Shown: positions 9,935 through 37,415 of the stretch, one piece after another | Layout of the letters: the number at the start of each line of letters is the position of its first letter | How positions within the stretch are numbered: position 1 is the first letter of the stretch | From: a virus | UHGV virus genome: UHGV-0423091 | DNA: 38,795 nucleotides | Direction: 5' to 3' (one strand) | Translations under genes and position numbers: made by a program | Notes under the pieces: model-generated | What the model was told of the DNA's origin: nothing | Databases searched by the model: none | What the model saw: the letters and a program-made list of their open reading frames with translations, nothing else

Positions 9935-10227
9935 TCCTGTTCACTGGCCTCTTTGGCCATCTTCAAATACTGTTCAGGGCAATGCGCCATAACGCGCTGA
10001 AACAGTTCCAGCGCCAGATTGCGTTGCCCCTCATTAAATGCCATTGCCATAGCGTCCATCGGTGAGATAGCGGAAAACACACGGCCTTTCTCCAGCACCG
10101 ACCAGACAACGCGACGCCCCTGTTCACTGCTCATGACAAAGCGAATGTCATCAATTTCACGCTGCGCCATGTCACGTTGCTTACGGGCGTTTTCTTCTTT
10201 CAGTTGATCGTCTTCGTAATCTGTCAT
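9931..10227 (-). CDS. small acidic head-morphogenesis-associated protein, 98 aa
   Basis: Track ORF, coupled to the portal stop and the scaffold start. Confidence 0.45.
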   Translation of the reverse strand: MTDYEDDQLKEENARKQRDMAQREIDDIRFVMSSEQGRRVVWSVLEKGRVFSAISPMDAMAMAFNEGQRNLALELFQRVMAHCPEQYLKMAKEASEQE

Positions 10228-11903
10228 TGTGATTGCCCACCCTGACCACTAACTGCATTCGCCATAGCTGACAAAACACTCGGATCCGAAGTTTTAGCTT
10301 CGCTTAGCGTCTTGGCACCCTGTGCCGCCGCCATCCCCATCGCCATCATTTGTTGCTGCTGTTGCTGCTGTGCCCGTTGCTGGCGAGCATGCTCAACCTG
10401 TTCCTGCGGAACAATGACGGTTGGAGACACTCCGGACATATCAGCGAATGCATCGATCGCCTGATCAACGTTGAGTTTGTCGAGAGCTTCTGGTTTCGCT
10501 TGCGCAAGTTGACCAATGAAGTTAACCGTGGACGCCAGACTGGACAGGCCGATAGACTTCTGCGCCTGAGCCATGACGGAAATGTATTCGACCTTCAGGG
10601 GCATGCCTTCCATCGCGTCAGGCGGTGGCGGCAGCATGTTTTTACGCACCATCATCGAGAAAGCGCGGTCAATGAGAGGATTAAGACATTCGTCGTTCAG
10701 ACGCTCCAGAACCGGCCCCAACATCAGAAGTTTTTCTTCTTTCATTTCGATCACCGCTTCAACAGGCATCGAGCGGGTATTGATGTTCTGCAACATCATG
10801 AACAGATCGACAAAGTAGGCGCTGTTAATGATTTGACGAGTGTCCTGAATGTCTGCCACCAAATCTGCTGTACTGGGGTTAACCAGATAAGCAGGCCTGA
10901 AGCCATCCTGACCAGTAATCTGATCGATATACGTGATGTCGCCAGGAAGAAGGGAGGCGCGCTGATTCTTGAGGGAAGTCGGAGCAACCATCGGCGGATT
11001 GGTGGCTTTATCAATCAACTGCGACTTGCGCTTCTGGAGAAGCTGCAATGCCTTAACAGATCCAAGCGCCAGCATACCCGGGCATGATGATCCATAAACA
11101 TCTTCGCCGTTAACTTCCCAGCGCGGAGCCATAATTGGAAACTCATCGAATCCGGACTCACGCAACAACTTGTCGTTATCGCCACCAACCTCGTAATAAA
11201 CCGATTTGAATGGCTTGTTCTTGCTATCCAGCTTCGATGTATCGCGGTCAATGTTCGGGTAAACCGAATGCATCACTTCAATCCACTTCTCGTAGGTGCC
11301 GCTTTCCCACATGCTTTTTACGGATTCGCTGACGTTATTTAGCCCGAACTCCTGAACAAGCTGACGAACAGTCATAGAGAACTTGCGAAAACAGGTGTCC
11401 ACACTGCCACGAGGTGAGTTAGCCAGGTAGTAACTGCCTATCGGGAATGGCATTGTGCGAATGATGTCCTCGTCATCCTCCAGCACTGCCATTGCACCAG
11501 TGCTGTATGTGCCGAGGCTTCCGTATAACTGCGGCAGCGACTGATAGAGATTCGACTTATTGAACATATCGTTCATGCGGTTCTGCACCGCCTCAAGCCA
11601 CAACTTAACAGGGCCATAATCCATCATTTCAGGATCTGGCGTAGCCAGGCGAAACCACGGACGCGCGGGGCTTGTGATGCCTGACATCATGCCGCTGGCG
11701 AGAGTGCGCGCCGCCATAGTCCCGGTCGAATCAATAATGCGTGTATTGCGTCGATCGTTACGGTTGACCTCAGAAGTCAGAAAGCGGGAACCACGTGGGT
11801 TGATGTAATCACTCAACTCGCGCCAGTGCGGCTCGAACGACTGACGCTCGCTTTCAAGTTGTGCGAACTGTTTGTTCAATCGCTCTTTAGTTGTTTCCGC
11901 CAT
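10224..11903 (-). CDS. portal protein, 559 aa
   Basis: Track ORF; size and position; GGAG SD 9 nt upstream of ATG 11903; acidic C-terminal tail with poly-Gln/Ala. Confidence 0.75.
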   Translation of the reverse strand: MAETTKERLNKQFAQLESERQSFEPHWRELSDYINPRGSRFLTSEVNRNDRRNTRIIDSTGTMAARTLASGMMSGITSPARPWFRLATPDPEMMDYGPVKLWLEAVQNRMNDMFNKSNLYQSLPQLYGSLGTYSTGAMAVLEDDEDIIRTMPFPIGSYYLANSPRGSVDTCFRKFSMTVRQLVQEFGLNNVSESVKSMWESGTYEKWIEVMHSVYPNIDRDTSKLDSKNKPFKSVYYEVGGDNDKLLRESGFDEFPIMAPRWEVNGEDVYGSSCPGMLALGSVKALQLLQKRKSQLIDKATNPPMVAPTSLKNQRASLLPGDITYIDQITGQDGFRPAYLVNPSTADLVADIQDTRQIINSAYFVDLFMMLQNINTRSMPVEAVIEMKEEKLLMLGPVLERLNDECLNPLIDRAFSMMVRKNMLPPPPDAMEGMPLKVEYISVMAQAQKSIGLSSLASTVNFIGQLAQAKPEALDKLNVDQAIDAFADMSGVSPTVIVPQEQVEHARQQRAQQQQQQQMMAMGMAAAQGAKTLSEAKTSDPSVLSAMANAVSGQGGQSQ

Positions 11904-12124: not shown

Positions 12125-12214
12125 ATCAATGACTCCGTACGCAATTAAATTATTACCAATTTAACCACATATGATTTATTTATCGTAGATAGTTGACATT
12201 TAACGCACAAATTA

Positions 12215-12229
12215 TTACCTTTCAGGTAA
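12215..12229. promoter_or_regulatory. operator-like palindrome TTACC-tttca-GGTAA next to a TTGACA box (12193-12198)
   Basis: Perfect copy of the dispersed 15-bp palindrome, in the intergenic region between the 68-aa gene and the tRNA. Confidence 0.45.
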
Positions 12230-12551
12230 GCAAAGAGTTCATTCCGGTTATTAACCTGACTGGCTTGTCGTTAAATTGAACAGGTGGAGTGAGCTTTTAT
12301 TTTGAGCAGTACGGCGTATGGCACATGCGCCGATAGCGGTCTGGATACGTTTAAGGGGCACCCTCCCTTGCTCGGGCAAACGAACCAGGTAGCCGGAATG
12401 TGCAAGTCGAGCGGTTTTATTCCGCGCACGGGGATTCACCATCCCGGCGATTCGGTGTGACGCCTCGGAAGAGACGAGGGTACAACGATGAGAGCATTTA
12501 TGGAGCCGCGACAAAGTGTGGCGCCTTAACAGGCTAAGTGCTCTCAGCGTT

Positions 12552-12628
12552 GTGGCATTAGCTCAGTTGGACAGAGCAACCGCCTTCTAAGCGGTTGGTC
12601 GCAGGTTCGAATCCTGCATGCCACGCCA
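12552..12628 (+). tRNA. tRNA-Arg (anticodon TCT, reads AGA/AGG), argU-like
   Basis: Hand-folded cloverleaf: 7-bp acceptor GTGGCAT/ATGCCAC, D-arm GCTC...GAGC, anticodon stem ACCGC/GCGGT with loop CTTCTAA, T-arm GCAGG-TTCGAAT-CCTGC, discriminator G and encoded CCA. Confidence 0.85.
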
Positions 12629-12671: not shown

Positions 12672-12715
12672 GGCGGTGATAGTTTCCCTTGAAGGACTAT
12701 CACCGCCCTTTTTAC
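12672..12715 (+). terminator. strong rho-independent terminator after the tRNA
   Basis: Perfect 12-bp stem GGCGGTGATAGT / ACTATCACCGCC with a 12-nt loop, followed by CTTTTT. Confidence 0.7.
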
Positions 12716-12791
12716 AGCAGGACGCCATTGCGATGACTTCATGCTGTAAACCCGTGCAGCCACGGAAGGCATAACTCATTGCTTCCAGTTC

Positions 12792-12815
12792 GCCCGGTTC
12801 GCCGGGCATTTTTTT
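12792..12815 (+). terminator. second intrinsic terminator (GCCCGG-UUCG-CCGGGC plus T7)
   Basis: 6-bp GC stem with UUCG tetraloop followed by seven T. Confidence 0.55.
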
Positions 12816-12831
12816 GCTTGATGACCGCAAA

Positions 12832-12849
12832 TTACCTTAAAGGTATAAT
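12832..12849. promoter_or_regulatory. operator-like site TTACC-ttaaa-GGTAt overlapping a perfect TATAAT (12844-12849) just upstream of the moron gene
   Basis: One-mismatch copy of the dispersed palindrome; consensus -10 hexamer. Confidence 0.4.
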
Positions 12850-12850
12850 C

Positions 12851-13669
12851 ATGAAAAACTTCAAGGTAATTAGCATGTTTGAATCGTTCAAAGAGCTGTT
12901 TTTATCTACTGCCAATACTGCCGTGAATCGAGCCAAAAACCCTGTGCTTGGTGCTTTTGTTATGTCCTGGTGCGCCTTCAACTGGAAATCAATTCTTTAT
13001 CTATTTTTTAGCAAATCAAACATAATAGATAAAATTTCATATATCTCAGATAACAGCACATGGAAAACTGTTATGTTTTATCCATGCTTATCTGTAATTG
13101 CTATCTGCTGCCTATTACCATGGGTAAACAATATCATTAACGTATGGCAAGCAAAGCCTCTTGATAATAATGACTCAATCGAAAATCACCTGAAGGCAAG
13201 AAAAATCCAGCGTGAAACAAGACTGCAGAGGTTATTGGCTAAAAAAGATGTTACATACGACAAAGTTAAGACTGGCGCGGAAAAAGACATCCAAGAGATG
13301 AAAGAAGAGATTATTCGATCAAAGAATAGTATGGGGGAATTGACTGCCGAGTTGAAAGCTAAAGATGACGAATTGAGATCCGCCAGTGCTCAGTTAGCAG
13401 CTCTAAATCATTCATTAAAAGAGATATCGGAAACTCTTGGAAGAATGAATGAGGCATATAAGACCCTCCAAAATGATTTCGACGAATACAAACTCAAATA
13501 CCCTGAAAAATCTCAAATAAAAAGCCTTGAACTTGGCAACGGCCAAACAATTAGCAACTTTTTGGAGCAACACAACTTATCCGGATTAAAATCTGGTAAG
13601 CCAAACGTTTTTAATAACTTTGGTGTTCTATCTGGATTATCAGGTTTCGAGGATAAAAATAAAGACTAA
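12851..13669 (+). CDS. moron: membrane plus coiled-coil protein, 272 aa; candidate superinfection-exclusion or abortive-infection factor
   Basis: Track ORF trimmed to ATG 12851; two predicted transmembrane segments then a long charged helical region; AT-rich; antisense to and converging on the terminase gene. Confidence 0.65.
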   Translation: MKNFKVISMFESFKELFLSTANTAVNRAKNPVLGAFVMSWCAFNWKSILYLFFSKSNIIDKISYISDNSTWKTVMFYPCLSVIAICCLLPWVNNIINVWQAKPLDNNDSIENHLKARKIQRETRLQRLLAKKDVTYDKVKTGAEKDIQEMKEEIIRSKNSMGELTAELKAKDDELRSASAQLAALNHSLKEISETLGRMNEAYKTLQNDFDEYKLKYPEKSQIKSLELGNGQTISNFLEQHNLSGLKSGKPNVFNNFGVLSGLSGFEDKNKD

Positions 13670-15141
13670 GCATATGGATCGTACTCGGTAAGCGCCTTGC
13701 CTTGCTGGTTCTGCTGCCCGGGAAGTCGCAGGCGCTTTGACACCGGGAAAGCAAACGTCAGCAGTAGCGCATCGCCTTTACCAGGCGAACGCCCAAGTCG
13801 TTCTTTGATATCTTCCTTCGGTTCGATAACGATTTTACCGTCCACGCGAACTTTGTACTCTGCCGCCGACAGATCGTCCGCTGTTTCCTGGTCATCCAGC
13901 ATCCCGCCCAACCTCAGCCATGTCTTGCATGAGTTGAACATCTCCCCGCGCTTGTTGAGCATCTGAGGGTCAGTTGACGCACCACCGAACGGAACAAGTT
14001 GCCATGTGCGCCCCCAGCCGTCACCGATTGACTTCAGACCGGTTCCGTAACCGAAGTCGATGAACACCGCGTCAGCCTGATACTGGTCTTCAAAGTCAGC
14101 GATACGCTTCGCCATAATCAGATCGTCAGTGGTCTTGTTGCCAGTCCATAGCACCTTACTATGCAACCCCTGCCGCAGGTATATCACCGCGTCATCAACG
14201 CCTGAATATGCCGGGTCAACACCGATTATCACCGGAGCATGTGCCACCTGCGCAGCGGTTACCACCCGTTTCATTGCCTCATCAGTAAGACCGGTAGGGA
14301 TAAACTGCAATTCAGATGCATCAGGGAATATGCCGCGCACACGGATTTTAACGAAGTCGCTGTCTTCCCCGTAGTCATCAACCCATTTCTGCAACTGCTG
14401 TTTGTTAGTACCTTCCACCGTCCGGCTGTCAATCTGCGCAGTTTTCCAGCGGTGTTTGTATTTGCGGAAACATTCGCGAAAACGCCCGGTATTACGTGTA
14501 GGGTTTCCGAACGCCACCCAGATAATCTCAGTGTCTTCGTCCGTAAGCGCACCCTCAGCAACTTCCCACACCAGATCCGCAATGTTCGACGCTTCATCGA
14601 ATACCACGATGATGCGTTTGCGCTCGTTGTGTAGTCCGGCGAATGCCTCAGTGTTGTGCTCAGACCAGGGGATTGCGTCAGCTCGCCACCGCTTGTCGTG
14701 CCCAGGATCATTGCTGTACATCGCGGTAGCGGTACAGGTAAACCAGTCTTTCGTGATAGCAAGGTTCGACCACTTGATAATTTCCGGCCAGGTCTTCGTT
14801 CGTAGCTGGTTGTCGGTGTTGGCGGTCACCACGACCTTACAATCCTCGCAAGTGGACATGCCCCAGTTGATCAGCATTGAGATGAATGCGGATTTACCAA
14901 TACCGTGACCAGAAGCACGTGCCAGCATAAGCGGCTGATAACGCGTCTCTGGATTCTGCAGGTGATCACGTATCTCTCGGAACGCATCGGCCTGCCACTG
15001 ACGTGGGCCGGTAGCATGTGCCAGTTCAGTCCCCTCTTCCCCCCACGGGAACGCATAGAGGGCATAGCCAAGCGGATCGTGAGTGAACCCTGCAATATCC
15101 TCGATTAACTGCTCTTCAGGAGATAACGCTGTATCTGTCAC
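13666..15141 (-). CDS. terminase large subunit, 491 aa
   Basis: Walker A-like ARASGHGIGKS near the N-terminus; size; directly downstream of the small subunit. Confidence 0.9.
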   Translation of the reverse strand: MTDTALSPEEQLIEDIAGFTHDPLGYALYAFPWGEEGTELAHATGPRQWQADAFREIRDHLQNPETRYQPLMLARASGHGIGKSAFISMLINWGMSTCEDCKVVVTANTDNQLRTKTWPEIIKWSNLAITKDWFTCTATAMYSNDPGHDKRWRADAIPWSEHNTEAFAGLHNERKRIIVVFDEASNIADLVWEVAEGALTDEDTEIIWVAFGNPTRNTGRFRECFRKYKHRWKTAQIDSRTVEGTNKQQLQKWVDDYGEDSDFVKIRVRGIFPDASELQFIPTGLTDEAMKRVVTAAQVAHAPVIIGVDPAYSGVDDAVIYLRQGLHSKVLWTGNKTTDDLIMAKRIADFEDQYQADAVFIDFGYGTGLKSIGDGWGRTWQLVPFGGASTDPQMLNKRGEMFNSCKTWLRLGGMLDDQETADDLSAAEYKVRVDGKIVIEPKEDIKERLGRSPGKGDALLLTFAFPVSKRLRLPGQQNQQGKALTEYDPYA

Positions 15142-15734
15142 TGATTACCATCCTGACGTTCTTTGAGTCGCTTCCTGGCTGCTGCTATGCGATCAGCAAT
15201 TGTCACATTCACATTAACATCCAGACGTTCTTTGAACGCGTTGACATCAACATGCTTACCAATCAGCTCAAGGTTCTTCACCTTGTCAGGCCATTTAATT
15301 TTTTTGAGGATTGTCTCTATCGAATCCTCGTTCATGTTCATGATGGTCGATGACAAATCAAAGCCACTAAGCGTAGTGCGCCAGATTTTCGGCCACTCAC
15401 GGATTGGTTTAAGGCTCCCATCGTCGTTGAGGATGTCGATCACGTCCATCTGGTCGATCTGCACCAGGCGCATGAGAACGTAATCAGCACTGACGCGCAT
15501 TCGTTTGTTGCGCTCCTCCATCAACTCGGCAATCCGTTTTTGAATGCGTTCATCGCGCATCATGACACTGGCTTTAACTGCCGCTGTATTTGGGGAGAAT
15601 CCTGCGTTAATCGCTGCCTGAGTCTGGTTTTCAGGCGTTTTGATGTATGACTGGCAATAAGCCTCCTGCATTGCTGTTAGTGGCTTAAATTGCGTTGATT
15701 TGCGTTTATAGGTTTTAGGTTCAGCAGGCATCAT
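15138..15734 (-). CDS. terminase small subunit, about 198 aa
   Basis: Track ORF 15138..15812 trimmed to tandem ATGs at 15734/15731, because a terminator hairpin lies inside the track's N-terminal extension. Confidence 0.65.
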   Translation of the reverse strand: MMPAEPKTYKRKSTQFKPLTAMQEAYCQSYIKTPENQTQAAINAGFSPNTAAVKASVMMRDERIQKRIAELMEERNKRMRVSADYVLMRLVQIDQMDVIDILNDDGSLKPIREWPKIWRTTLSGFDLSSTIMNMNEDSIETILKKIKWPDKVKNLELIGKHVDVNAFKERLDVNVNVTIADRIAAARKRLKERQDGNQ

Positions 15735-15766
15735 AACCACCGTGGTAATAGTTACCGTTATGGTAA
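15734..15766. promoter_or_regulatory. two tandem operator-like sites (TaACC-accgt-GGTAA and TTACC-gttat-GGTAA) overlapping the terminase small subunit start and SD
   Basis: Dispersed palindrome copies at 15734-15748 and 15752-15766. Confidence 0.45.
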
Positions 15767-15775
15767 TAGTACCAT

Positions 15776-15803
15776 GCAAAATAAAGCCGCCATAGTTGGC
15801 GGC
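15776..15803 (-). terminator. intrinsic terminator in the late-operon leader (GCCGCC-6 nt-GGCGGC then TTTATTTTG on the minus strand)
   Basis: 6-bp GC stem followed by a T-rich tract on the coding strand, about 45 nt upstream of the terminase start. Confidence 0.55.
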
Positions 15804-15852
15804 AGTATTCAAAACCCATCAAATTCATCATGCATAATCTACTCGTGACATG

Positions 15853-20799: not shown

Positions 20800-21030
20800 T
20801 CATGAGTAGAAGAAGTATGCCAGTTCTGCTTTTGAGCGCAGCCATTGTCTTGTTTTACAGGCTTTAAAAAGCCCATTCATCAATACTTTACCTGGCATTT
20901 TGCGCTTACCTGTTAAGTGAGTCTGGATATAGTGACTCGTCGTTCCGGCTTCCTGTGCGAAGGCTTCACGCTCATCCGGAGTAAGTGCAAGCCAGTGCTT
21001 TTTGAAATCGAAATGTCCGTTATCGCTCAT
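20800..21030 (-). CDS. Cro-like HTH regulator, 76 aa
   Basis: Divergent from the repressor gene across an operator-rich intergenic region; HTH-like segment FAQEAGTTSHYIQTHLTGKR. Confidence 0.5.
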   Translation of the reverse strand: MSDNGHFDFKKHWLALTPDEREAFAQEAGTTSHYIQTHLTGKRKMPGKVLMNGLFKACKTRQWLRSKAELAYFFYS

Positions 21031-21184: not shown

Positions 21185-21769
21185 ATGAAAAGTATCCAGG
21201 ACGTCCGCAGGCAAAATCTCAACGACTTGATCGACCGTGAATTCAATGGTGTTCAGACGCGGATGGCAGAAAAACTTGGAACTCAGGCAAATCTGGTAAA
21301 CCGCTGGGCTCTTGGCAAGAAGGTTATCGGCGACCAGGTTGCACGAAAAATTGAAGCTGCCGCCAATAAACCCCGTAACTGGCTTGATATTGATCGCTCG
21401 CTTTCTCAGGAGGGTTTTCAGCCTGTCGGCCCGAGCGATATAGGTCAGCTGGCGGCTCACAACCTGGAACGCTGGATGAGCGAAAGCCGCGACCTTTCAA
21501 CGCAGGGAAAACTACACCGCGCATCCGGCGTCGCCCAGGTGACAATCAGCCGCCTGTTAAACAATGAGGTCAGCGTTTCCATTTCCACCCTGGAGAATGT
21601 TGCATCCGCATTCGGGCGTCACGGCTATGAATTACTGATTCACCCGCACGACCCTGCGACCATCAACTATGATCGCTCGCGCTACGCATTGTTACCCGAA
21701 ACCGAGAAAGCAAAGATCGAAAGTTACATTGAATTTGTCATCAACCAGAACGAAAAAAACAAACAATAA
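21185..21769 (+). CDS. phage repressor (CI role), 194 aa, two HTH-like segments, no S24 peptidase domain
   Basis: Divergent from the Cro-like gene; HTH-like segments near residues 25-45 and 110-135; no Ala-Gly/Ser-Lys autocleavage module; no SD (leaderless-like start). Confidence 0.65.
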   Translation: MKSIQDVRRQNLNDLIDREFNGVQTRMAEKLGTQANLVNRWALGKKVIGDQVARKIEAAANKPRNWLDIDRSLSQEGFQPVGPSDIGQLAAHNLERWMSESRDLSTQGKLHRASGVAQVTISRLLNNEVSVSISTLENVASAFGRHGYELLIHPHDPATINYDRSRYALLPETEKAKIESYIEFVINQNEKNKQ

Positions 21770-25617: not shown

Positions 25618-26868
25618 TTATTCCCCCGCCATCCACTTCTCAAACTTCGACGGGGAGAACGGAATCAGATCCGTATGCTCCCCGTTAATCCAGGAATCAA
25701 TCATATCGGCCCACTGCTGCAACATGTAGGCGCGCTGTCTGGCGTATTCCGCTTTGTTATATACGGCGCGCACACCTTTCTGCTCATGTGCCAGAGCCTT
25801 TTCAATCCAGTCTGAAGGATAACCAGCCTCATGCAACAACGTACTGGCTGTACGGCGCATATCGTGTACGGTGAAGTCCTGAATATGCTCACCATCTTCA
25901 TTTATTATTTTCACCGTTCTGTCGATCAGAGAGTTCAGCGCGGCATTAGATAATGGCTTCCGGAAATTGTAACGACCAGGAACCAGATATTCACTTCCAC
26001 CAGCGCACATCTGCAACCCGACCAATATATCCTGTGCCTGTTTAGGCAGGTAAATAACGTGCGCCCGGCTTCCCTTCATACGGTCTGAAGGAATTGTCCA
26101 TGTCCATTTTTTAAAATCTATTTCATCCCACGTTGCATTGGTGAATTCGCCTTTACGAACCATAGTGATAAGCACCAGCTTTAAAGCCATTTTCATAGTG
26201 CCCATAGCGCCAATGGCATCCAACGTGCGGAAGAACAGGCCAATTTCTTCTGGTGTCAGTGTTCGCTCTCGTGGTTTAAATATGGCGATAGACGAAGGTT
26301 TAATGTCAGCCGCAGGATTAAACAAACCATGACCACGGTCATTGGCGTGACGGTATACGCTGCTGATGATCTCCCGGGCCTGCACTGCTGTTGCCCGGCC
26401 ACCGCGTTCGACAATCCGGTCACACAAATCACGAACCATCGATGTGGTAATTTCAGCCATCATTTTGTTGCCAAGAACCGGAAGTATGTCACGGTCGATC
26501 ACCGCCTGCTTCATTGCGCGGGTACTTTCAGCCAGGATGACGTGTTTCATATAACTGTCGGTATGTACCGCAAATGTCTCGGCACCACGAATCTTTTTGA
26601 TACCGTCACGTTTAGCCGCAGCCGGCGACTGGCCTGCTTTAAGCAGCTTCTTTGCAGCAATCAGTTCTTCCCGCGCTTCTGCCAGGCTGATACCGTCACG
26701 CCCATACTGCCCGATTACCAGTGTTTCGCGGCGACCGTTGATACGGTAGTCATAGCGAAACGAGACCGTACCTGACGTAAGCACAGCTACATACAGCCCG
26801 TCACGATCGGAAACTTTGTACAGTTTGTCCTGTGGCTTGAGGTTCTTTAATTTTGTATCGGTAAGCAC
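25618..26868 (-). CDS. tyrosine integrase, P4-type, 416 aa
   Basis: Size; N-terminal MLTDTKLKNLKP-type arm-binding region; C-terminal HDMRRT...LAHE...Y catalytic region. Confidence 0.85.
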   Translation of the reverse strand: MLTDTKLKNLKPQDKLYKVSDRDGLYVAVLTSGTVSFRYDYRINGRRETLVIGQYGRDGISLAEAREELIAAKKLLKAGQSPAAAKRDGIKKIRGAETFAVHTDSYMKHVILAESTRAMKQAVIDRDILPVLGNKMMAEITTSMVRDLCDRIVERGGRATAVQAREIISSVYRHANDRGHGLFNPAADIKPSSIAIFKPRERTLTPEEIGLFFRTLDAIGAMGTMKMALKLVLITMVRKGEFTNATWDEIDFKKWTWTIPSDRMKGSRAHVIYLPKQAQDILVGLQMCAGGSEYLVPGRYNFRKPLSNAALNSLIDRTVKIINEDGEHIQDFTVHDMRRTASTLLHEAGYPSDWIEKALAHEQKGVRAVYNKAEYARQRAYMLQQWADMIDSWINGEHTDLIPFSPSKFEKWMAGE

Positions 26869-27186: not shown

Positions 27187-27669
27187 CTATCTGGTCAGGG
27201 TGTCGTACTGTTTTTCACAGACTCTTCCGGCTTCGGCTGCCCGGTCAGCATACTCTGCCAGTTGTCTGTTTCTCTCGAGAGATTTACTGAGCACGTCGGC
27301 AAGCAAAACTCCGGTGTCTGCGGCTGACGTCCCAGCGCCGACAATGGCGTTATACTGCCTGAGCTGCTCACGGATGGCAACGAGCTGTTGCTGCAACCGG
27401 CCAGCGCGAGCGGCAGCATCAAGAGCATCATTGCGCGCCTGGTCGATCCTCTGCTGCGCTTCACGTTCATTGATCGATTTCTCCTGTTCGTAGTGCTGAC
27501 GAACTCTCTCATCTTCGGTTTTGCGGTCTTCTTTCGCCTGTGCATACCCGGCGTCGTACTGACGACTACCGTGTACATTCCAGGCAACAACCCCTGATAT
27601 GACCAGAACAGCAAGCACCGCCACGATAAGCAACTGTTTCCAGTATGCTTTTACGAATGCCCAGATCAT
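27187..27669 (-). CDS. i-spanin (Rz-like), 160 aa
   Basis: N-terminal transmembrane helix then charged coiled-coil; directly after the endolysin (start overlaps its stop). Confidence 0.65.
27195..27470 (-). CDS. o-spanin (Rz1-like) lipoprotein, embedded in the +1 frame of Rz
   Basis: Signal peptide ending in lipobox LAGC ([26 protein letters not shown]); AGGAG upstream of ATG 27470 (alternative start 27431); entirely inside the Rz ORF. Confidence 0.55.
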   Translation of the reverse strand: MNVKRSRGSTRRAMMLLMLPLALAGCSNSSLPSVSSSGSITPLSALGRQPQTPEFCLPTCSVNLSRETDNWQSMLTGQPKPEESVKNSTTP

Positions 27670-28295
27670 ACCGCCAGCACCTTACTGGCAGTGATGTACC
27701 GCGCTCTCCGGTCGTCGATGCCGTTCCTGCCACCATTGATAATCAAAGTTACACGTGCAATATCGCCGGTATACTTCATGCAACCTTTGCTGGAGAAGAA
27801 CCACGCCGCGCTACGAGCCGCATATTCGTCCTGCGCTAACAGTTCAGGATTCTCCAGCAGGTCCACTTTCAGGCCGTTTCCGCAGTCACGATAGTTATTC
27901 AAACCGGTAATCTGGATAAGTCCACGGCCTCGGTAATTCCAGCCGTCACCAGGGGAATTGTTCCCCATGCGTTTGCTGTACACCAGATTGGCGATCGCTC
28001 GCTGGCGCTCGAGTGGCAATGGTGGTTCACCAGCACGGCGACCCAGTGCATTAGCCTGCCCCTGAGTGAGACGCCCAGCCCGAACGAAGTTAGCCAGACC
28101 GCTGACACTGTAGTTGAAATTCTCCTGCAATCTGGTGAAGCCCACAGATTCATGCCCGACCTGAGCAATAAACATTGCCAGATCTTCTGGTTTGCTGATA
28201 CCAAACTCTTTCATCGCAGAAGTTATATGCGAGAACCAGCGTGCGGCCAGCGCCTCGCTAATACCAGCAGCTCGCTGGAATTGTTTAATCTCCAT
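27666..28295 (-). CDS. endolysin, glycoside hydrolase family 19-like (chitinase-like lysozyme), 209 aa
   Basis: Track ORF 27666..28526 trimmed to ATG 28295 (GAGG SD); GH19-like segments [12 protein letters not shown] and [13 protein letters not shown]. Confidence 0.8.
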
Positions 28296-28593
28296 GTTTA
28301 GACCTCGATATTTTGAAAATCTGAACAACGTTACCGCGTGTTTTAATAACCGCGGCAAGCATGACAGCGTTGATAATGACCTCAGATAAATCCACAGCCA
28401 TTGGCGTGCGTAACCAGATTGCATAGACGACACGAACAGGAATACTGGCCGCAGCAACAATAAGGAAATAAGCAAGCCACCCTCCCCATCTTCGATGTTG
28501 AGAGCCGTTACGCCGGAATGTGACAACGCGAATTGCTATGCCAGTACAAATAACTGCATTGGTGATAAGCAAAAAAAACTCATGCGTTACCAT
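28285..28593 (-). CDS. holin or antiholin, 102 aa, about three transmembrane segments
   Basis: Hydrophobic small protein immediately upstream of, and overlapping, the endolysin start. Confidence 0.5.
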
Positions 28594-28996
28594 CGTCTTT
28601 TCTCCCCGGAATTAAATCGCGTGGATTGTCTGAACGGTGGTAGAGCCATATACCAATACGCACAGCGACAATTGCTGACACGAATGCGCCAGCAGAGAAA
28701 ACAATACCTTTTTCAAAAGAGTCCTGCGTGATGGTAGGGATCAGGCTGGCTATGCCGATAAGAATTGATGCTGCTGGTTTGTAGAAAAGAAGTCCGCAGA
28801 GAAAGCTGAGCATCGACAAGAGTACGCGACGACGAATTGGATACTCTACCGCAGAGGTAACAAAAATTACCGCACCAGCAAGAGCACCGAGCGCCACCTC
28901 TGGCGGAACACCTACGATAACCGCAGCAAGAGAGCTCACACTAAGCCATTGATTTAAAGACTCAGTTGTTATGTTAACCGACATAGCACACACCAT
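28580..28996 (-). CDS. holin-like membrane protein, 138 aa, about four transmembrane segments
   Basis: First gene of the lysis cassette; overlaps the next membrane-protein gene by 14 bp. Confidence 0.5.
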   Translation of the reverse strand: MVCAMSVNITTESLNQWLSVSSLAAVIVGVPPEVALGALAGAVIFVTSAVEYPIRRRVLLSMLSFLCGLLFYKPAASILIGIASLIPTITQDSFEKGIVFSAGAFVSAIVAVRIGIWLYHRSDNPRDLIPGRKDDGNA

Positions 28997-32222: not shown

Positions 32223-32265
32223 TTGCAATTACCAAGTGGAGTGCTTATATTTACCATTGCGGTAA
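32223..32265 (+). promoter_or_regulatory. sigma70-like promoter (TTGCAA-N17-TATATT) with operator-like site TTACC-attgc-GGTAA (32251-32265) over the start region
   Basis: Near-consensus -35/-10 with 17-bp spacer; palindrome overlaps the -10 and predicted +1. Confidence 0.45.
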
Positions 32266-32532
32266 ATTTACATCGCACTCCTCTTGTGCCATAGTAATCG
32301 GGCACTGGCAAAATCCAGTGCCGGGATTGGCGTTCCGGATTACTACAGAGGCACATATGCCGCATAAGCGGTTTTTTTATGTGTAAAGCGCACCTATTCT
32401 ATGGTGGGCTGTGTGGGGGCACCGAAAGGTGCGCCGGGTTCCTTTGTAGCCGGTTACGCCAACCCTGCACAGTTCACCACCAACCGATTGGCGTCGGTAG
32501 TGGTGATTAACCTAACTACAAAGGTGATCACT

Positions 32533-33219
32533 ATGACTGCTAACGTAACCCCATCTGTTTTTCATTTTGAATCAGAAGCAACCATTCGAGCCATTGTTAT
32601 TGATGGAAATCCTTGGTTTGTTGCCAAAGACGTTATTAAAGCTCTTCAACTGACAAACCCCACTATGTCAATAAAATCTCTTGATGATGATGAAAGGGCT
32701 AAATTTAACTTAGGCCGTCAAGGCGAAACCAATATTATCAACGAGTCAGGCCTCTACACACTGATCCTCCGCTGCCGCGACGCAGTGACACCAGGCACTA
32801 TCCCCTACCGCTTTCGTAAATGGGTTACAGGTGAGGTTCTTCCTCAGATCCGCCGCACCGGAAGTTACATTAAAAACTCGCTCCCGCAGGAAGAACGCAT
32901 AAAGATGGTTGCCGACCAAGTAGCCAACGCCACGGCGTCAGCAGTGATGCAGGCAATGAAGATAGAGAACAAAACCTACAGTGCACCACTGAAGCCCGGC
33001 TACCGCAGCCTGATTCATTCGCCGTCTGGTGTTCTCGGCCTGACGGAGAACTCACTGCTGATGAATTTGCTGAACCAGTTACAGGAAGACGGGCATGACG
33101 TATCGGGCGCGGCGGCGGAGCTGACCACCATGTTCTGCTACATCGTCGGTGTGAGCAAATGCCTGCGTGATATCCAGACGCACGCGGAGTACATCAACGA
33201 CAAAGCAGGGTTCTTCTGA
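32533..33219 (+). CDS. antirepressor, Bro-N domain family, 228 aa
   Basis: Track ORF 32401..33219 trimmed to ATG 32533 (AAGGTG SD); N-terminal Bro-N-like segment IRAIVIDGNPWFVAKDV...LYTLILRC. Confidence 0.7.
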   Translation: MTANVTPSVFHFESEATIRAIVIDGNPWFVAKDVIKALQLTNPTMSIKSLDDDERAKFNLGRQGETNIINESGLYTLILRCRDAVTPGTIPYRFRKWVTGEVLPQIRRTGSYIKNSLPQEERIKMVADQVANATASAVMQAMKIENKTYSAPLKPGYRSLIHSPSGVLGLTENSLLMNLLNQLQEDGHDVSGAAAELTTMFCYIVGVSKCLRDIQTHAEYINDKAGFF

Positions 33220-33291: not shown

Positions 33292-33306
33292 TTACCTTAA
33301 AGGTAA
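33292..33306. promoter_or_regulatory. operator-like palindrome TTACC-ttaaa-GGTAA upstream of the accessory module
   Basis: Perfect copy 43 bp upstream of ATG 33349. Confidence 0.45.
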
Positions 33307-33348: not shown

Positions 33349-33675
33349 ATGACAAAACTTGGATTCGTGATGAGAGGTCCGGTAAGAAGCGGAACTCATG
33401 CAAAGCGTAGCAAGAGTCGTATTTTTACTGGTAAGGTTGTAGCACGTAAATCAGCTATTGGCTCGTTCAATAGTGAAAATGCGGCATTGCGCCATATTTT
33501 TATCAGCACAAAGCCAAGAGCATCCGCTGATGTGCATACAATGACTATTCCTATCACAAAGAATATAAAGCGGATAAAAAAGCTCTCATCTGCAGAATCA
33601 AAAGAGATATCTTTCCGCCAGCTTAACTCATTAGAAACGCATATGAAGGAAGAGGAATTCGATGTTTTTGAGTGA
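33349..33675 (+). CDS. highly basic small protein, 108 aa (accessory module gene 1)
   Basis: GGAG SD 7 nt upstream; Lys/Arg-rich; AT-rich codon usage; overlaps the next gene by 14 bp. Confidence 0.5.
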   Translation: MTKLGFVMRGPVRSGTHAKRSKSRIFTGKVVARKSAIGSFNSENAALRHIFISTKPRASADVHTMTIPITKNIKRIKKLSSAESKEISFRQLNSLETHMKEEEFDVFE

Positions 33676-34174
33676 GTATAGCGGGAAGGTTATACCTACT
33701 GGTGAGTTTAAAACTGATGACTTTCTGATTTCGCTAAAAGATGCTTTTAAACAACACTGGCGTCATGGTCATCATCCTGATCTGGGAAAAGATACTCTTT
33801 TTGAAAGACCAGACGAAGTATTAGGTTTCCATCTCAGAAAGGTTCATGTCAATATTGGTGAATATGCATCATATTCATACTCATGTACTGAACAGTGTTG
33901 GGATGAGTGGTCATATGGATTGATTGATGAACAAGGAAATTACAGGCCAAAACCAACCAGTAACGCATATCTCATATATGCAGTCAATGAAATAAGAGAT
34001 GCAGCCTTACTAGCTTATTGGGACCCGCCCGCACACACCAAAGCTAACGCAAAAGTTTGGATGGATTCCGTATTGAATTTCACAAAATTATTTCATGAAC
34101 GAACGAATACAGCTCCACTTAGTAGAAATGTTTATCCGTGGGATTATTCGTACAAATCCAAAAAGCCTGCATAG
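33662..34174 (+). CDS. hypothetical protein, 170 aa, His/Trp/Tyr-rich (accessory module gene 2); loose by-eye resemblance to YafO-type toxins
   Basis: GAGG SD; translationally coupled to gene 1; resemblance is from memory and low-confidence. Confidence 0.5.
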   Translation: MFLSEYSGKVIPTGEFKTDDFLISLKDAFKQHWRHGHHPDLGKDTLFERPDEVLGFHLRKVHVNIGEYASYSYSCTEQCWDEWSYGLIDEQGNYRPKPTSNAYLIYAVNEIRDAALLAYWDPPAHTKANAKVWMDSVLNFTKLFHERTNTAPLSRNVYPWDYSYKSKKPA

Positions 34175-34448: not shown

Positions 34449-34745
34449 TCACGTTCCTTTTCTGAATGATAGCCGTTCGAAAAATGATGACATTCCACCG
34501 CAGACAATAGCAAAGATGATCCCACCAAAGAAGAGAAGGCCAGCCTGCCACCACTCCCACCGCCATACATCCACAGCACCAACCATACCAACAATCGCTC
34601 CAACAAACGGAATATAACTCACGATGAAAGCAATGGTGGCTGCAATTATCCAGTGCAATCCCCACCATGATTCAAGCCCAGCCATAATTGCTGCCAACTG
34701 AAAAAGGCCAACGACGATATAAACAATGAATCCTATCGCTTGCAT
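34449..34745 (-). CDS. small integral membrane protein, 98 aa, last gene of the late operon
   Basis: Three hydrophobic segments rich in Gly/Ala/Ile/Trp. Confidence 0.55.
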   Translation of the reverse strand: MQAIGFIVYIVVGLFQLAAIMAGLESWWGLHWIIAATIAFIVSYIPFVGAIVGMVGAVDVWRWEWWQAGLLFFGGIIFAIVCGGMSSFFERLSFRKGT

Positions 34746-34940
34746 GTAGTCACCTATTTACCCAGTAAAAATCAGAGGCCTCCCCTCAATAAGGCTTGCA
34801 ACAAGAACTATTCCCTGCACAACAAAGATGAACCAGCAAATAGCTTGAGTCTGAGGGTTAAGAAAATATTTGTAGCGGTCAATAAATAACAACCCACCAG
34901 AAATTATCACACTCAAAATAATTAAAAACACAACACTTCC

Positions 34941-37415
34941 TTATTGCGGAGTGACATCCTGAGGTCGCCACCAGTATGTCTGATTAAACTCTTTCTTCGA
35001 ACGTTGCTCCATTTTACGCAAATAGCCTGGTGAAAAATACTCCTGCATCTGGTTAAAGATCATATGATCGAGAGCCGCCTTTAAGTACCAGAGATTCGCA
35101 CCTGGCATCAAACCTTTCCCCAGCTTCACCAGATCACCACCAGTCTGCTCACTCTTCCCTTCCACAGCATTTAACGGTATGCCCTGAGCAATCTTCACTA
35201 CGTCATCAACCAGACCAGCTACCGGGCCAAGCATCGACGCCAGCGCGCCGCTTCCGTACCTAGTGTGATCTGACAATAAAAAGTCACCATAAAGGCCAAG
35301 ACCACCACCTTTCAGTAGAGCACCAAGCCAGAATTTTGCGGCATCTTCTCCTGTCATCTCTCGAGGATTACGACCAGACGCAAGGTCGTTAAGTTGTTGC
35401 GACAAAGCGCCAAGAATGGTCGTACTGGCAATAAACGTCGCAATATATACCGCACGCCCACCAGCAGACGGCATACCCATAGCGCGTGACCAGTGACGCA
35501 TAACAACCGAGATAGGGAACGATTTAAACAGGAAAACACTTCTCGTTAATTCACCTTTCCATGTTCCACGCTGAATACCAGAACCGGTTATCAGTTGCTC
35601 ACGTGCTCCCGGTGTAATAACAGCCATATCAACTTCTTCAGTTACGGCACCGAGCAGTTTACGCATTGCCTCAAATTTCACGCGTTCAGGCTCACCAAGA
35701 TGTTTAACTGCTGAATCAGGGATACGCATAATGCTTTCCGGTGTCAGCATCGTATTATTACCGTTCCCCCAGTCCTCCTGTTGCGCCAGCTTCCATACGC
35801 TCCAGTCTGTGTCAGTAATCCCTTTGCTTTTCAGGATACGAAAATCAGAGTCATCGAGGCTACGAAGGTCTGGTGTTCGTGACACTACTTCTCCCAGGCT
35901 TCCCATCATGGTTACGCCATAGGCGCGCTTGTGCGCATCTGACCATGCTGTAAGCCCACTGGCACGCATTACCGCCGTTGCCGCCCAACGAGACACTGAC
36001 GGCCCCATATTATCCATCGCCCAGCGGTTAACGCTGCCAAGTAGAGATTCCATCGCCAGACCAGCGCGGCGCGCCCGCGCAAGTTCTGTACGGTTCGTTG
36101 GGTCCATAGCTTCAAGCTGGTTGCGGAATAACTGGTTCATTGGAAGGTTGGTAACCTTCGCAGACAGATACATGGTTCCAAGATCAGAGAACGATGACAG
36201 CAACGCGGATCCGAGTCTGCTGGCAACCAGCCAGTTGCGGATATTGTCAGACCATCGCGCGATGTGCGGATTCGCTACAGGCTGTGTCTTTCCGGAAATA
36301 AAGTTGTACAGATTCTCTGTGTTGTTCGCCAGCCGCTCGACTTTACCGGTTTTACTCGGGTTAGCTGTTGCCGTTTCTGCCTTCACCTGATCAAGAAGAG
36401 AGCGGAAAACATGATCGGGGTTTGGGCCATATGTTTCCACCAGTGCAATATCTTTACTGATACCTTCCAGGTGACCGACCATGATTTCCCATAGAGAGCG
36501 ATCGCCATAAAGTTGCTGATATTGCAGATAGGAATCTGCATCTTTGAAATGTATCTGTCGTGATGCATTACCCCGGTTAGCACGTGCGCCGGAAATTCGC
36601 ATTCCGATATCAGTAAGCTTATTCAGCCCACCAGTAGCGATCGTGTTATAAGCCTCTCCAAGAAATGCAGACAACTCGGCATCGTTCATCAGTTGTCCAT
36701 CGGCTCGGATATAATATTTGCGATCCAGCTTACCTATAACATCGCTAACCCACTTATCCTTTGATACCGCCCCAACCTTTTCCATAGAATGATGTTGAGG
36801 GATCCCCCAGTTTTCGAGATAGCCAATGTCCCCACCAGCATCATTAAACCGGCGGCGCAGCAGCTCTGTAACTTCTCTCCACGCCTTAGCACCTTTTCTT
36901 GCTTTAGCATTGCCAGTATTTTGCCCCCGCATTTCATATACCAGGTCACGTACGCCCGCTTCATCTTCAAACAGACCAAAAAAGCGAGGATCAACTGCTT
37001 CGAATGCCTCCTGCAATTGACTCAATGCATAATCACGGGTGGCTTTTGTTCTGGATTCAACAGAGAGGAAATTAGATTTACCGTCTGCATTAAAAGCTAT
37101 AGTACGGTTAAGAGCGCCAAGTTTCCCATCAGCCCCTTGATAGCTATTGATAAATTTATCCAATCTCTGACGCGCGGCTATAGTAAGAGCCACACGACGT
37201 TTCTTTAATGCCGCTTCTCGCTGTAATTCTTCAGATGCCAATTGTGCTGCTCGATATAGCCGCTCTGATTCGGAAAGTTGTCGCCACGACATCGGGTCAT
37301 CACGAGCAATGGAGCGCATATTTCGATAAATGCGGTCTTCAATGTTCTGTATTTCTCGCGCCGTTAACGTGCGCTGCGCCGCCTGCTGGACCGCTTGTAT
37401 ACATTCCTGTCTCAT
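34941..37415 (-). CDS. large internal virion (ejection/core-type) protein, 824 aa
   Basis: Track ORF; size and position within the late operon; no enzymatic motif recognised. Confidence 0.6.
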   Translation of the reverse strand: MRQECIQAVQQAAQRTLTAREIQNIEDRIYRNMRSIARDDPMSWRQLSESERLYRAAQLASEELQREAALKKRRVALTIAARQRLDKFINSYQGADGKLGALNRTIAFNADGKSNFLSVESRTKATRDYALSQLQEAFEAVDPRFFGLFEDEAGVRDLVYEMRGQNTGNAKARKGAKAWREVTELLRRRFNDAGGDIGYLENWGIPQHHSMEKVGAVSKDKWVSDVIGKLDRKYYIRADGQLMNDAELSAFLGEAYNTIATGGLNKLTDIGMRISGARANRGNASRQIHFKDADSYLQYQQLYGDRSLWEIMVGHLEGISKDIALVETYGPNPDHVFRSLLDQVKAETATANPSKTGKVERLANNTENLYNFISGKTQPVANPHIARWSDNIRNWLVASRLGSALLSSFSDLGTMYLSAKVTNLPMNQLFRNQLEAMDPTNRTELARARRAGLAMESLLGSVNRWAMDNMGPSVSRWAATAVMRASGLTAWSDAHKRAYGVTMMGSLGEVVSRTPDLRSLDDSDFRILKSKGITDTDWSVWKLAQQEDWGNGNNTMLTPESIMRIPDSAVKHLGEPERVKFEAMRKLLGAVTEEVDMAVITPGAREQLITGSGIQRGTWKGELTRSVFLFKSFPISVVMRHWSRAMGMPSAGGRAVYIATFIASTTILGALSQQLNDLASGRNPREMTGEDAAKFWLGALLKGGGLGLYGDFLLSDHTRYGSGALASMLGPVAGLVDDVVKIAQGIPLNAVEGKSEQTGGDLVKLGKGLMPGANLWYLKAALDHMIFNQMQEYFSPGYLRKMEQRSKKEFNQTYWWRPQDVTPQ

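Follow-up and report, generated by a model that had tools for sequence, protein, structure and literature searches.

The stretch of DNA analyzed here, the 38,795-nucleotide (nt) UHGV virus genome UHGV-0423091 and hereafter the window, is the complete, circularly permuted genome of an epsilon15/phiV10-like temperate podovirus of the genus Uetakevirus. It is similar in sequence to phiV10, TL-2011b, ZX5 and related phages, and E. coli chromosomes carry the same phage as a prophage beside guaA. Between the genes for the large terminase (TerL) and the portal, where all flanking late genes lie on the minus strand, the genome holds a plus-strand island, and the present analysis concerns one gene within it, an open reading frame (ORF) at 12851-13669 referred to as the cassette gene. 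A first-pass annotation had described this ORF as a low-GC gene placed opposite the late operon and running into the terL stop, preceded by two plus-strand terminators and equipped with its own TATAAT promoter and an operator-like site. All of this holds, with a GC content of 36.4% against 48.4% for the window and a stop codon (13667-13669) that overlaps the TerL stop (13666-13668), 4 nt being common to both ORFs with stops included. The locus is laid out as follows, with residue numbers referring to a form of the protein of 264 amino acids (aa) unless the 272-aa form is stated.

12672-12716, plus strand: terminator 1, 3' of a tRNA gene, a hairpin (12672-12707) with a 14-base-pair (bp) stem, then a T run
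12792-12816, plus strand: terminator 2, a hairpin (12792-12807) with a GC-rich 6-bp stem and T7, the T run being the left boundary of the variable cassette
12821-12849, plus strand: cassette sigma-70 promoter, ATGACC (12821-12826), a 17-nt spacer and TATAAT (12844-12849), 10 of 12 positions matching the consensus
12832-12846: operator-like palindrome TTACCttaaaGGTAT, overlapping the spacer and the -10 element, with one mismatch to TTACC-N5-GGTAA
12851-12874, plus strand: eight codons from the annotated first ATG, probably untranslated
12875-13669, plus strand: cassette coding sequence, 264 aa plus stop, a membrane hairpin/coiled-coil protein of phrog_4780
12941-13147, plus strand: membrane hairpin, with transmembrane helix 1 (TM1) at aa 23-45, a loop at aa 46-64 and TM2 at aa 65-91
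13148-13354, plus strand: juxtamembrane segment and proximal coiled coil, aa 92-160, column conservation 0.70-0.95
13355-13666, plus strand: distal coiled coil (to about aa 207) and low-complexity tail (aa 208-264), hypervariable, conservation 0.18-0.36
13666-15141, minus strand: TerL, converging on the cassette gene, with overlapping stop codons and no terminator between them

The reading frame proposed earlier stands, but its start does not. From its first ATG the ORF would encode 272 aa; however, almost every one of some 120 homologues has its start at the second ATG (MLES/MFES), which corresponds to position 12875, and ATG 12851 is neither kept in other cassettes nor located downstream of the transcription start implied by the -10 element. 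The 272-aa start was therefore rejected, and the real start is most likely ATG 12875, 24 nt further on, with AAGG at 12863-12866 as a suitable ribosome-binding site. In-frame internal Met codons are also present in the gene.

That the ORF might be non-functional or mis-called can be regarded as already refuted by its conservation pattern and retains next to no probability. Such a view could draw on the missing family annotation and on the AT-rich surroundings, in which long ORFs arise more easily. Against it stand the N-terminal ratio of nonsynonymous to synonymous substitutions (dN/dS) of 0.10 relative to a 282-aa sibling allele, which marks purifying selection, the saturation of synonymous sites relative to more distant alleles that still share about 70% amino-acid identity, the hundreds of homologues with invariant residues, and the Shine-Dalgarno sequence and promoter, which are conserved and accompany the gene in other cassettes. 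The gene is a real, selected and non-essential accessory cassette.

The predicted architecture of the protein, two N-terminal transmembrane helices followed by a long coiled coil, agrees with the first description in hydropathy, heptad register and AlphaFold2 helices alike. Hydropathy places the hydrophobic helices at residues 31-54 and 69-101 of the 272-aa form. Across 49 diverse members of the superfamily, R19, P23, G26, W32, N36, W37, P70 and P82 are invariant, giving a signature in and before TM1 (E-R-x-K-N-P-x-x-G-A-F-x-x-S-W-x-x-F-N-W) together with two prolines in TM2. In the same set, lysine and arginine residues average 3.45 before TM1 and 4.10 just after TM2 as against 2.35 in the loop, which is net negative; by the positive-inside rule this tally points to an N-in/C-in topology with both termini predicted to be cytoplasmic. 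When the N-terminal 110 residues were modeled alone with a deeper alignment, AlphaFold2 returned a helical hairpin with a predicted local distance difference test score (pLDDT) of 84.5. Further along, one unbroken heptad register of about 12 heptads spans approximately residues 124-207, with 75-100% of a/d positions hydrophobic, and AlphaFold2 models a 75-residue helix here (pLDDT about 90) followed by a low-confidence tail. The full-length model reaches a pLDDT of 68 and matched nothing in BFVD with E<0.4.

At the family level, the protein is a direct, full-length member of phrog_4780 (E=7.5e-137, residues 9-272 of the 272-aa form against profile positions 1-267 of 275), with phrog_13369 and phrog_35327 as distant relations. 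Since these PHROGs lack a known function, membership gives no mechanism, and the earlier remark that no family could be recognized is borne out, as phrog_4780 is all that profile and structure searches returned. Scans with Pfam, NCBIfam and PADLOC produced coiled-coil noise only, whether the query was the protein, its N-terminal 131 aa or a distant relative. Against PADLOC-DB 2.0 this comprised weak coiled-coil matches to DndD, LmuB and JetC (E>=1e-4, all in residues 92-260), and eight other family members gave nothing there except one LmuB coiled-coil match. A sequence-profile search of the PDB yielded only chance matches to G-protein-coupled receptors, and the C-terminal 104 aa as sole query found fragments of the same family and no other protein context. 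Clear homology to a virion component had been named as an observation that would speak against an accessory role; in the searches made, no relative appeared among virion proteins or in any curated family. The literature searched is silent too: accession WP_000787773 was not found mentioned, and publications on phiV10, Uetakevirus and epsilon15 say nothing about the cassette gene or the palindrome.

Sequence comparison within the family reveals a modular protein. There are 177 close homologues, and a profile search found 281 representative clusters at E<1e-10, all sharing one plan of hairpin, long coiled coil of variable length and variable tail, without an enzymatic domain. Among 52 diverse close homologues, median pairwise identity is 76% over residues 1-160 and 13% over the remainder, and of 1,205 pairs at or above 70% identity in the N-terminal part, 1,085 fall below 25% in the C-terminal part. 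The boundary between the conserved and variable parts is sharp and falls directly after MGELTAE, a pattern from which it is plausible that the C-terminus is exchanged like a specificity module.

The second line of evidence concerns regulation. Allowing at most one mismatch, the palindrome TTACC-N5-GGTAA occurs 16 times in the window where 0.8 copies are expected and 100 shuffles produced a maximum of 4, so that the operator-like site over the cassette promoter belongs to a motif far more frequent than chance would allow. The copies and the genes that frame their densest cluster are given here.

12215, 12832, 15734, 15752, 18722, 18784, 20730, 21067, 21115, 21827, 21889, 26911, 28846, 31871, 32251, 33292: start positions of the palindrome copies (15 nt each)
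20800-21030, minus strand: cro-like gene
21185-21769, plus strand: cI-like helix-turn-helix gene (repressor)

Copies lie between the cro-like and cI-like genes, one within the predicted PR spacer, and just 3' of the cI terminator, where one abuts the -10 element of a TTGACA-17-AATTAT promoter. Others are found at the promoter before isrK/C4/ant, upstream of int, terS and the tailspike gene, and at the promoter of the tRNA and its leader. Most promoters of the phage are accompanied by a copy. The cassette site overlaps promoter elements with the same geometry as the PR-, PL- and ant-type promoters, and in loci of E. coli, Klebsiella and Cronobacter the gene is accompanied by a tGATGAC...GGTAtAAT block. 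Two sibling alleles found at this genomic position (296 and 201 aa; L013 and L014) carry perfect copies of the palindrome. In Salmonella phage SPN1S there are 18 copies against 0.5 expected, three on each side of the repressor gene. Taken as a whole, this layout would be that of a dispersed immunity operator, with the repressor as its putative binder. Because the site covers the spacer and the -10 element, a repressing position, the cassette gene is probably expressed weakly or not at all in the lysogen and becomes active upon infection or induction. This is where the earlier proposal of a lysogenic-conversion gene lacks support in its timing, since an immunity-type operator over the -10 element predicts silence or at most low expression in lysogens. 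The term moron also fits only in part: the promoter of its own, the foreign composition and the absence from relatives are all there, but no terminator-like site follows the gene on the plus strand before 13787, and, lacking a terminator toward terL, the gene departs from the textbook moron. A 16-nt inverted repeat (12827-12842/12859-12874) was considered as an RNA switch and rejected, its right arm being unconserved and its left arm lying upstream of the inferred transcription start.

The third line of evidence is the position of the gene in an exchangeable slot bounded by the T run of terminator 2 on the left and the TerL stop on the right. The match to phiV10 and TL-2011b breaks off at 12815, and the cassettes diverge directly after 'cattttttt'. 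Of 5,426 complete E. coli genomes, about 515 contain the flanks of the slot and 37 this allele; otherwise the slot is empty or holds a PF13876 Gp49/Sf6-gp66 gene, as in phiV10, a gene for a 139-aa protein, or another allele of the superfamily, of which at least five very divergent ones occur (264, 282, 246, 201 and 296 aa). The cassette gene itself is absent from phiV10, TL-2011b, ZX5 and SPN1S. The Gp49 cassette (123 aa; L011, 588-959; phiV10p03) and the 139-aa cassette (L012, 588-1007) have no promoter of their own and begin directly after terminator 2 with a ribosome-binding site only, and would thus rely on read-through from the tRNA promoter. Outside this slot, family members are always lone genes and occupy a range of elements.

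Lambdoid Klebsiella phages: between replication and nin genes, reverse-oriented
A phage-plasmid of about 113 kb: between parA and tail fibers, reverse-oriented
Vibrio island: beside a resolvase and DUF3800
Vibrio inovirus: beside DUF2726
Klebsiella, Leptospira and Vibrio plasmids
Cronobacter chromosome

Carriage on so many element types makes it unlikely that the function depends on a single virion type or on lysis. On a Klebsiella IncFIB plasmid (L022, 5001-5309), a family copy truncated by IS1 adjoins a DUF1778/GNAT (TacAT-like) toxin-antitoxin pair, and the same combination is seen on conjugative plasmids of several K. pneumoniae isolates.

The available data are compatible with a model, held tentatively and at somewhat less than an even chance, in which the gene is a single-gene accessory cassette for an inner-membrane protein of phage conflict, acting by exclusion or abortive infection, whose promoter is overlapped by an immunity operator. 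Specifically, the N-terminal two-helix hairpin would anchor the 264-aa protein in the inner membrane with both ends in the cytoplasm, and the conserved juxtamembrane segment would lead into a parallel coiled coil of about 12 heptads that oligomerizes the protein. The distal coiled coil and tail would form a swappable module that recognizes a rival phage's component at the inner membrane or close to it. Upon recognition, the conserved, oligomeric membrane hairpins might breach the membrane barrier, an abortive-infection type of outcome that is our first choice, or, as a close second, the membrane module might obstruct genome entry, as in exclusion. Expression would be low or absent in the stable lysogen and would start where repressor is lacking, soon after infection or upon induction. 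Participation in conflicts among mobile elements is suggested by the occurrence as a lone gene on many element types, the combination of a conserved membrane module with swappable cytoplasmic ones, the allelism at a hotspot and a machine-learning prediction. With regard to the latter, DefensePredictor labels two of the sibling alleles found in this slot 'predicted novel defense gene', with log-odds of 6.05 and 5.88 for WP_021523210.1 (296 aa) and 4.36 for WP_024946521.1 (201 aa), where the strict cut-off is 4 (PMC13092281 Tables S5/S10). The superinfection-exclusion or abortive-infection role proposed from the outset is therefore plausible on the grounds of mobile carriage, C-terminal swaps and these sibling predictions, though constitutive expression in the lysogen is unlikely. 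A more far-reaching version, in which the family would constitute a new class of single-protein anti-phage sensor-effectors, with a membrane killing or blocking module, exchangeable coiled-coil recognition and, in Uetakeviruses, a wiring into the immunity circuit that couples exclusion to induction or infection, is rather improbable. As it stands, the protein is a good, testable candidate rather than a surprise.

Several observations weigh against this phage-conflict model. Prophage defense genes are normally expressed in the lysogen, and an operator in a repressing position is unusual for them. The cassette site of this allele carries one mismatch. One Klebsiella lambdoid phage retains the palindrome while using a different operator, and the site might therefore have a purpose unrelated to the repressor. 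The variation in the C-terminus could stem from relaxed constraint, in a coiled coil beside a recombination-prone junction, and not from target specificity. The topology comes from hydropathy and charge counts only, and TM1 holds an invariant N-W-K; moreover, the protein contains no enzymatic or known pore-forming domain. Around 45% of DefensePredictor hits were validated overall, and both sibling alleles lie outside the systems tested (PMC13092281). Finally, a function in any member of the family is so far a prediction.

Two other functions have to be weighed against the same evidence. In the classical form of lysogenic conversion, the gene would be expressed constitutively from the prophage and its product would block superinfecting DNA at the inner membrane, like P22 SieA, HK97 gp15 or T4 Imm. 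The promoter of its own, the foreign composition, the reverse orientation, the predicted inner-membrane location and the defense prediction for sibling alleles would all suit such a gene. The one-mismatch operator could leak, and Klebsiella lambdoid phages carry the cassette without a matching operator regulon, so that it would be constitutive there. Nevertheless, the operator covers the spacer and the -10 element as at PR and is perfect in sibling alleles, the variable part is predicted to be cytoplasmic and not periplasmic, and there is no sequence relation to SieA. Since inoviruses and plasmids also carry the family, a block specific to podovirus ejection proteins would be too narrow, and overall we regard constitutive conversion as unlikely.

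Alternatively, the cassette might serve the phage's own lytic phase and not defense, as an early membrane protein that adjusts host physiology for phage growth, for example as an inhibitor of division or of a membrane protease, by setting the time of lysis or by counteracting a membrane-bound host defense. This would sit well with the membrane location, with a promoter predicted to be under repressor control and with the neighboring tRNA-Arg unit, whose role is plausibly lytic. Furthermore, transcription of the cassette runs antisense into terL without a terminator and would be tolerable only early. Yet inoviruses, conjugative plasmids and genomic islands are not lytic carriers, lysis is already provided for by a complete cassette at another place in the phage genome (holin, GH19 endolysin, DUF2514 spanin), and the gene, which phiV10, ZX5 and SPN1S lack, is dispensable. 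Wholesale swapping of the C-terminus is likewise unexpected for a binder of a conserved host target. A lytic helper is accordingly rated as doubtful, and the phage-conflict model remains the one we favor.

Comparison with known systems provides a framework for this candidate. The nearest analogue in layout is SieB of lambda and P22 (PF14163), a lone phage gene opposite an operon that likewise ends at its neighbor's stop (in lambda, sieB at 34482-35036, plus strand, with N ending at 35037) and encodes N-terminal hydrophobic helices followed by a charged C-terminal part. SieB aborts the lytic growth of other superinfecting phages, with self-protection through its in-frame Esc product. It is an analogue and not a relative: SieB has no long coiled coil, whereas the C-terminus of the cassette family is modular, and homology was rejected because there was no PF14163 match at E<=1 and hhalign of the N-terminal family profile against lambda SieB gave a probability of 0.9%. 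P22 SieA offers another parallel as a lone-acting, prophage-borne inner-membrane protein whose very divergent types share one locus (PMC10883804). However, SieA has 162 aa, three transmembrane helices and a cytoplasmic FxRYPxEAxxFNK motif (PMC10883804), while the cassette protein, at 264 aa, combines two hydrophobic helices with a coiled coil and lacks that motif; SieA, for its part, lacks a coiled coil and is expressed in the lysogen.

With respect to regulation, the dispersed repressor sites of the P1 C1 regulon and the stoperators of mycobacteriophage L5 are similar in that a short site is scattered over many promoters, including those of accessory genes and of a c4/ant-type immunity region. 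The putative repressor site described here differs in its symmetry (TTACC-N5-GGTAA, a palindrome) and in forming lambda-like clusters to either side of cI. The slot itself is reminiscent of the defense hotspots of P2 phages and P4 satellites, which are fixed slots with conserved flanks and alternative cargo of foreign composition (PMC13586616); here both the phage group and the slot (terL/tRNA-Arg) differ, and the cargo belongs mostly to one superfamily in many alleles.

Three further identities were considered and rejected. An inner-membrane spanin (i-spanin) has a single N-terminal transmembrane helix, a periplasmic coiled coil, an outer-membrane partner (o-spanin) and a place in the lysis cassette; the cassette protein has two helices, a predicted cytoplasmic C-terminus and no lipoprotein partner, and the phage has its own DUF2514 Rz-like gene. 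Class II holins have fewer than about 110 aa and two transmembrane helices and are encoded in the lysis cassette on the late strand, whereas this 264-aa protein is encoded on the opposite strand far from the lysis genes, where a Phage_holin_8 gene is found. A virion component was set aside as well, no structural-protein homology having been found in the searches made. The genes concerned map as follows.

25618-26868: integrase
27187-28996: lysis cassette (holin, GH19 endolysin, DUF2514 spanin)
27187-27669: DUF2514 Rz-like gene, beside the holin and endolysin genes
28580-28996: Phage_holin_8 gene

If the protein indeed acts against phages, it would add a widespread single-gene membrane mechanism that the Pfam, NCBIfam and PADLOC catalogues have missed, and the slot would define a defense-type hotspot in a prophage group carried by about a tenth of complete E. 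coli genomes. The five or more alleles in this one E. coli slot would then amount to natural swaps of C-terminal "specificity", ready for domain-swap experiments. The palindrome matters whatever the function of the cassette, as it suggests that a single palindrome is placed at about 16-18 promoters in epsilon15/phiV10-like phages. Accessory cargo that can be placed under immunity control would also change common assumptions about when "morons" are expressed.

The remainder of the plus-strand island, together with the neighboring late genes, comprises the following features.

10224-11903, minus strand: portal, with a small ORF between TerL and portal in the late-gene order
12193-12229, plus strand: island promoter region, TTGACA at 12193-12198 and a perfect TTACC-N5-GGTAA palindrome at 12215-12229 in the expected place of the -10 element
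12225-12551, plus strand: conserved leader of about 330 nt, 5' of the tRNA, without a coding sequence in the RefSeq annotation
12552-12628, plus strand: tRNA-Arg (UCU), found by ARAGORN and Rfam (RF00005, 73 bits)
15138-15812, minus strand: small terminase (TerS)

The island promoter block is kept in E. coli, Salmonella and Klebsiella Uetakeviruses, and alignment shows blocks of the leader to be conserved across the same three groups. The leader folds with a z-score of -3.2 relative to 100 shuffles and has no match in Rfam; phiV10p04 is annotated in this region on the opposite strand. The leader may represent a structured RNA not described before and co-transcribed with the tRNA-Arg. For TerS, the annotated start (TTG, 15812) adds 26 odd residues, MNTAANYGGFILHGTITITVTITTVV, within an extension (15728-15812, minus strand) that holds the palindrome copies at 15734 and 15752. 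The real start is probably the Met-Met near 15734, which would leave these operators in the late promoter region.

The phage also encodes an SGNH tailspike and, in a second region with palindrome copies, a Bro-N/Ash antirepressor preceded by isrK and C4 antisense RNAs.

32302-32484, plus strand: isrK (71 bits) and C4 antisense RNA (84 bits)
32401-33219, plus strand: Bro-N/Ash antirepressor gene

The two RNAs lie directly upstream of the antirepressor gene and overlap its start, with a palindrome copy at 32251, and by analogy the unit is a P1/P7 immI-like second immunity region in a podovirus. On the 3' side of the antirepressor gene, preceded by a perfect palindrome copy at 33292, lies a second reverse-oriented accessory gene (33662-34174, plus strand; 170 aa) with a weak YafO-toxin-like match (E=9.5e-4). 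A near-identical prophage (L021) has a DUF4760 protein in the corresponding region on the far side of its antirepressor gene.

Two circular 'plasmid' records from duck E. coli, NZ_CP079771.1 and NZ_CP079768.1 (41,027 bp), are this same phage genome and contain a copy 98.9% identical to the cassette gene. As both circular 41-kb records represent the same phage, the element excises. In strain HL15, one such circular record coexists with a chromosomal prophage copy, and the circular records suggest spontaneous excision or replication in culture.

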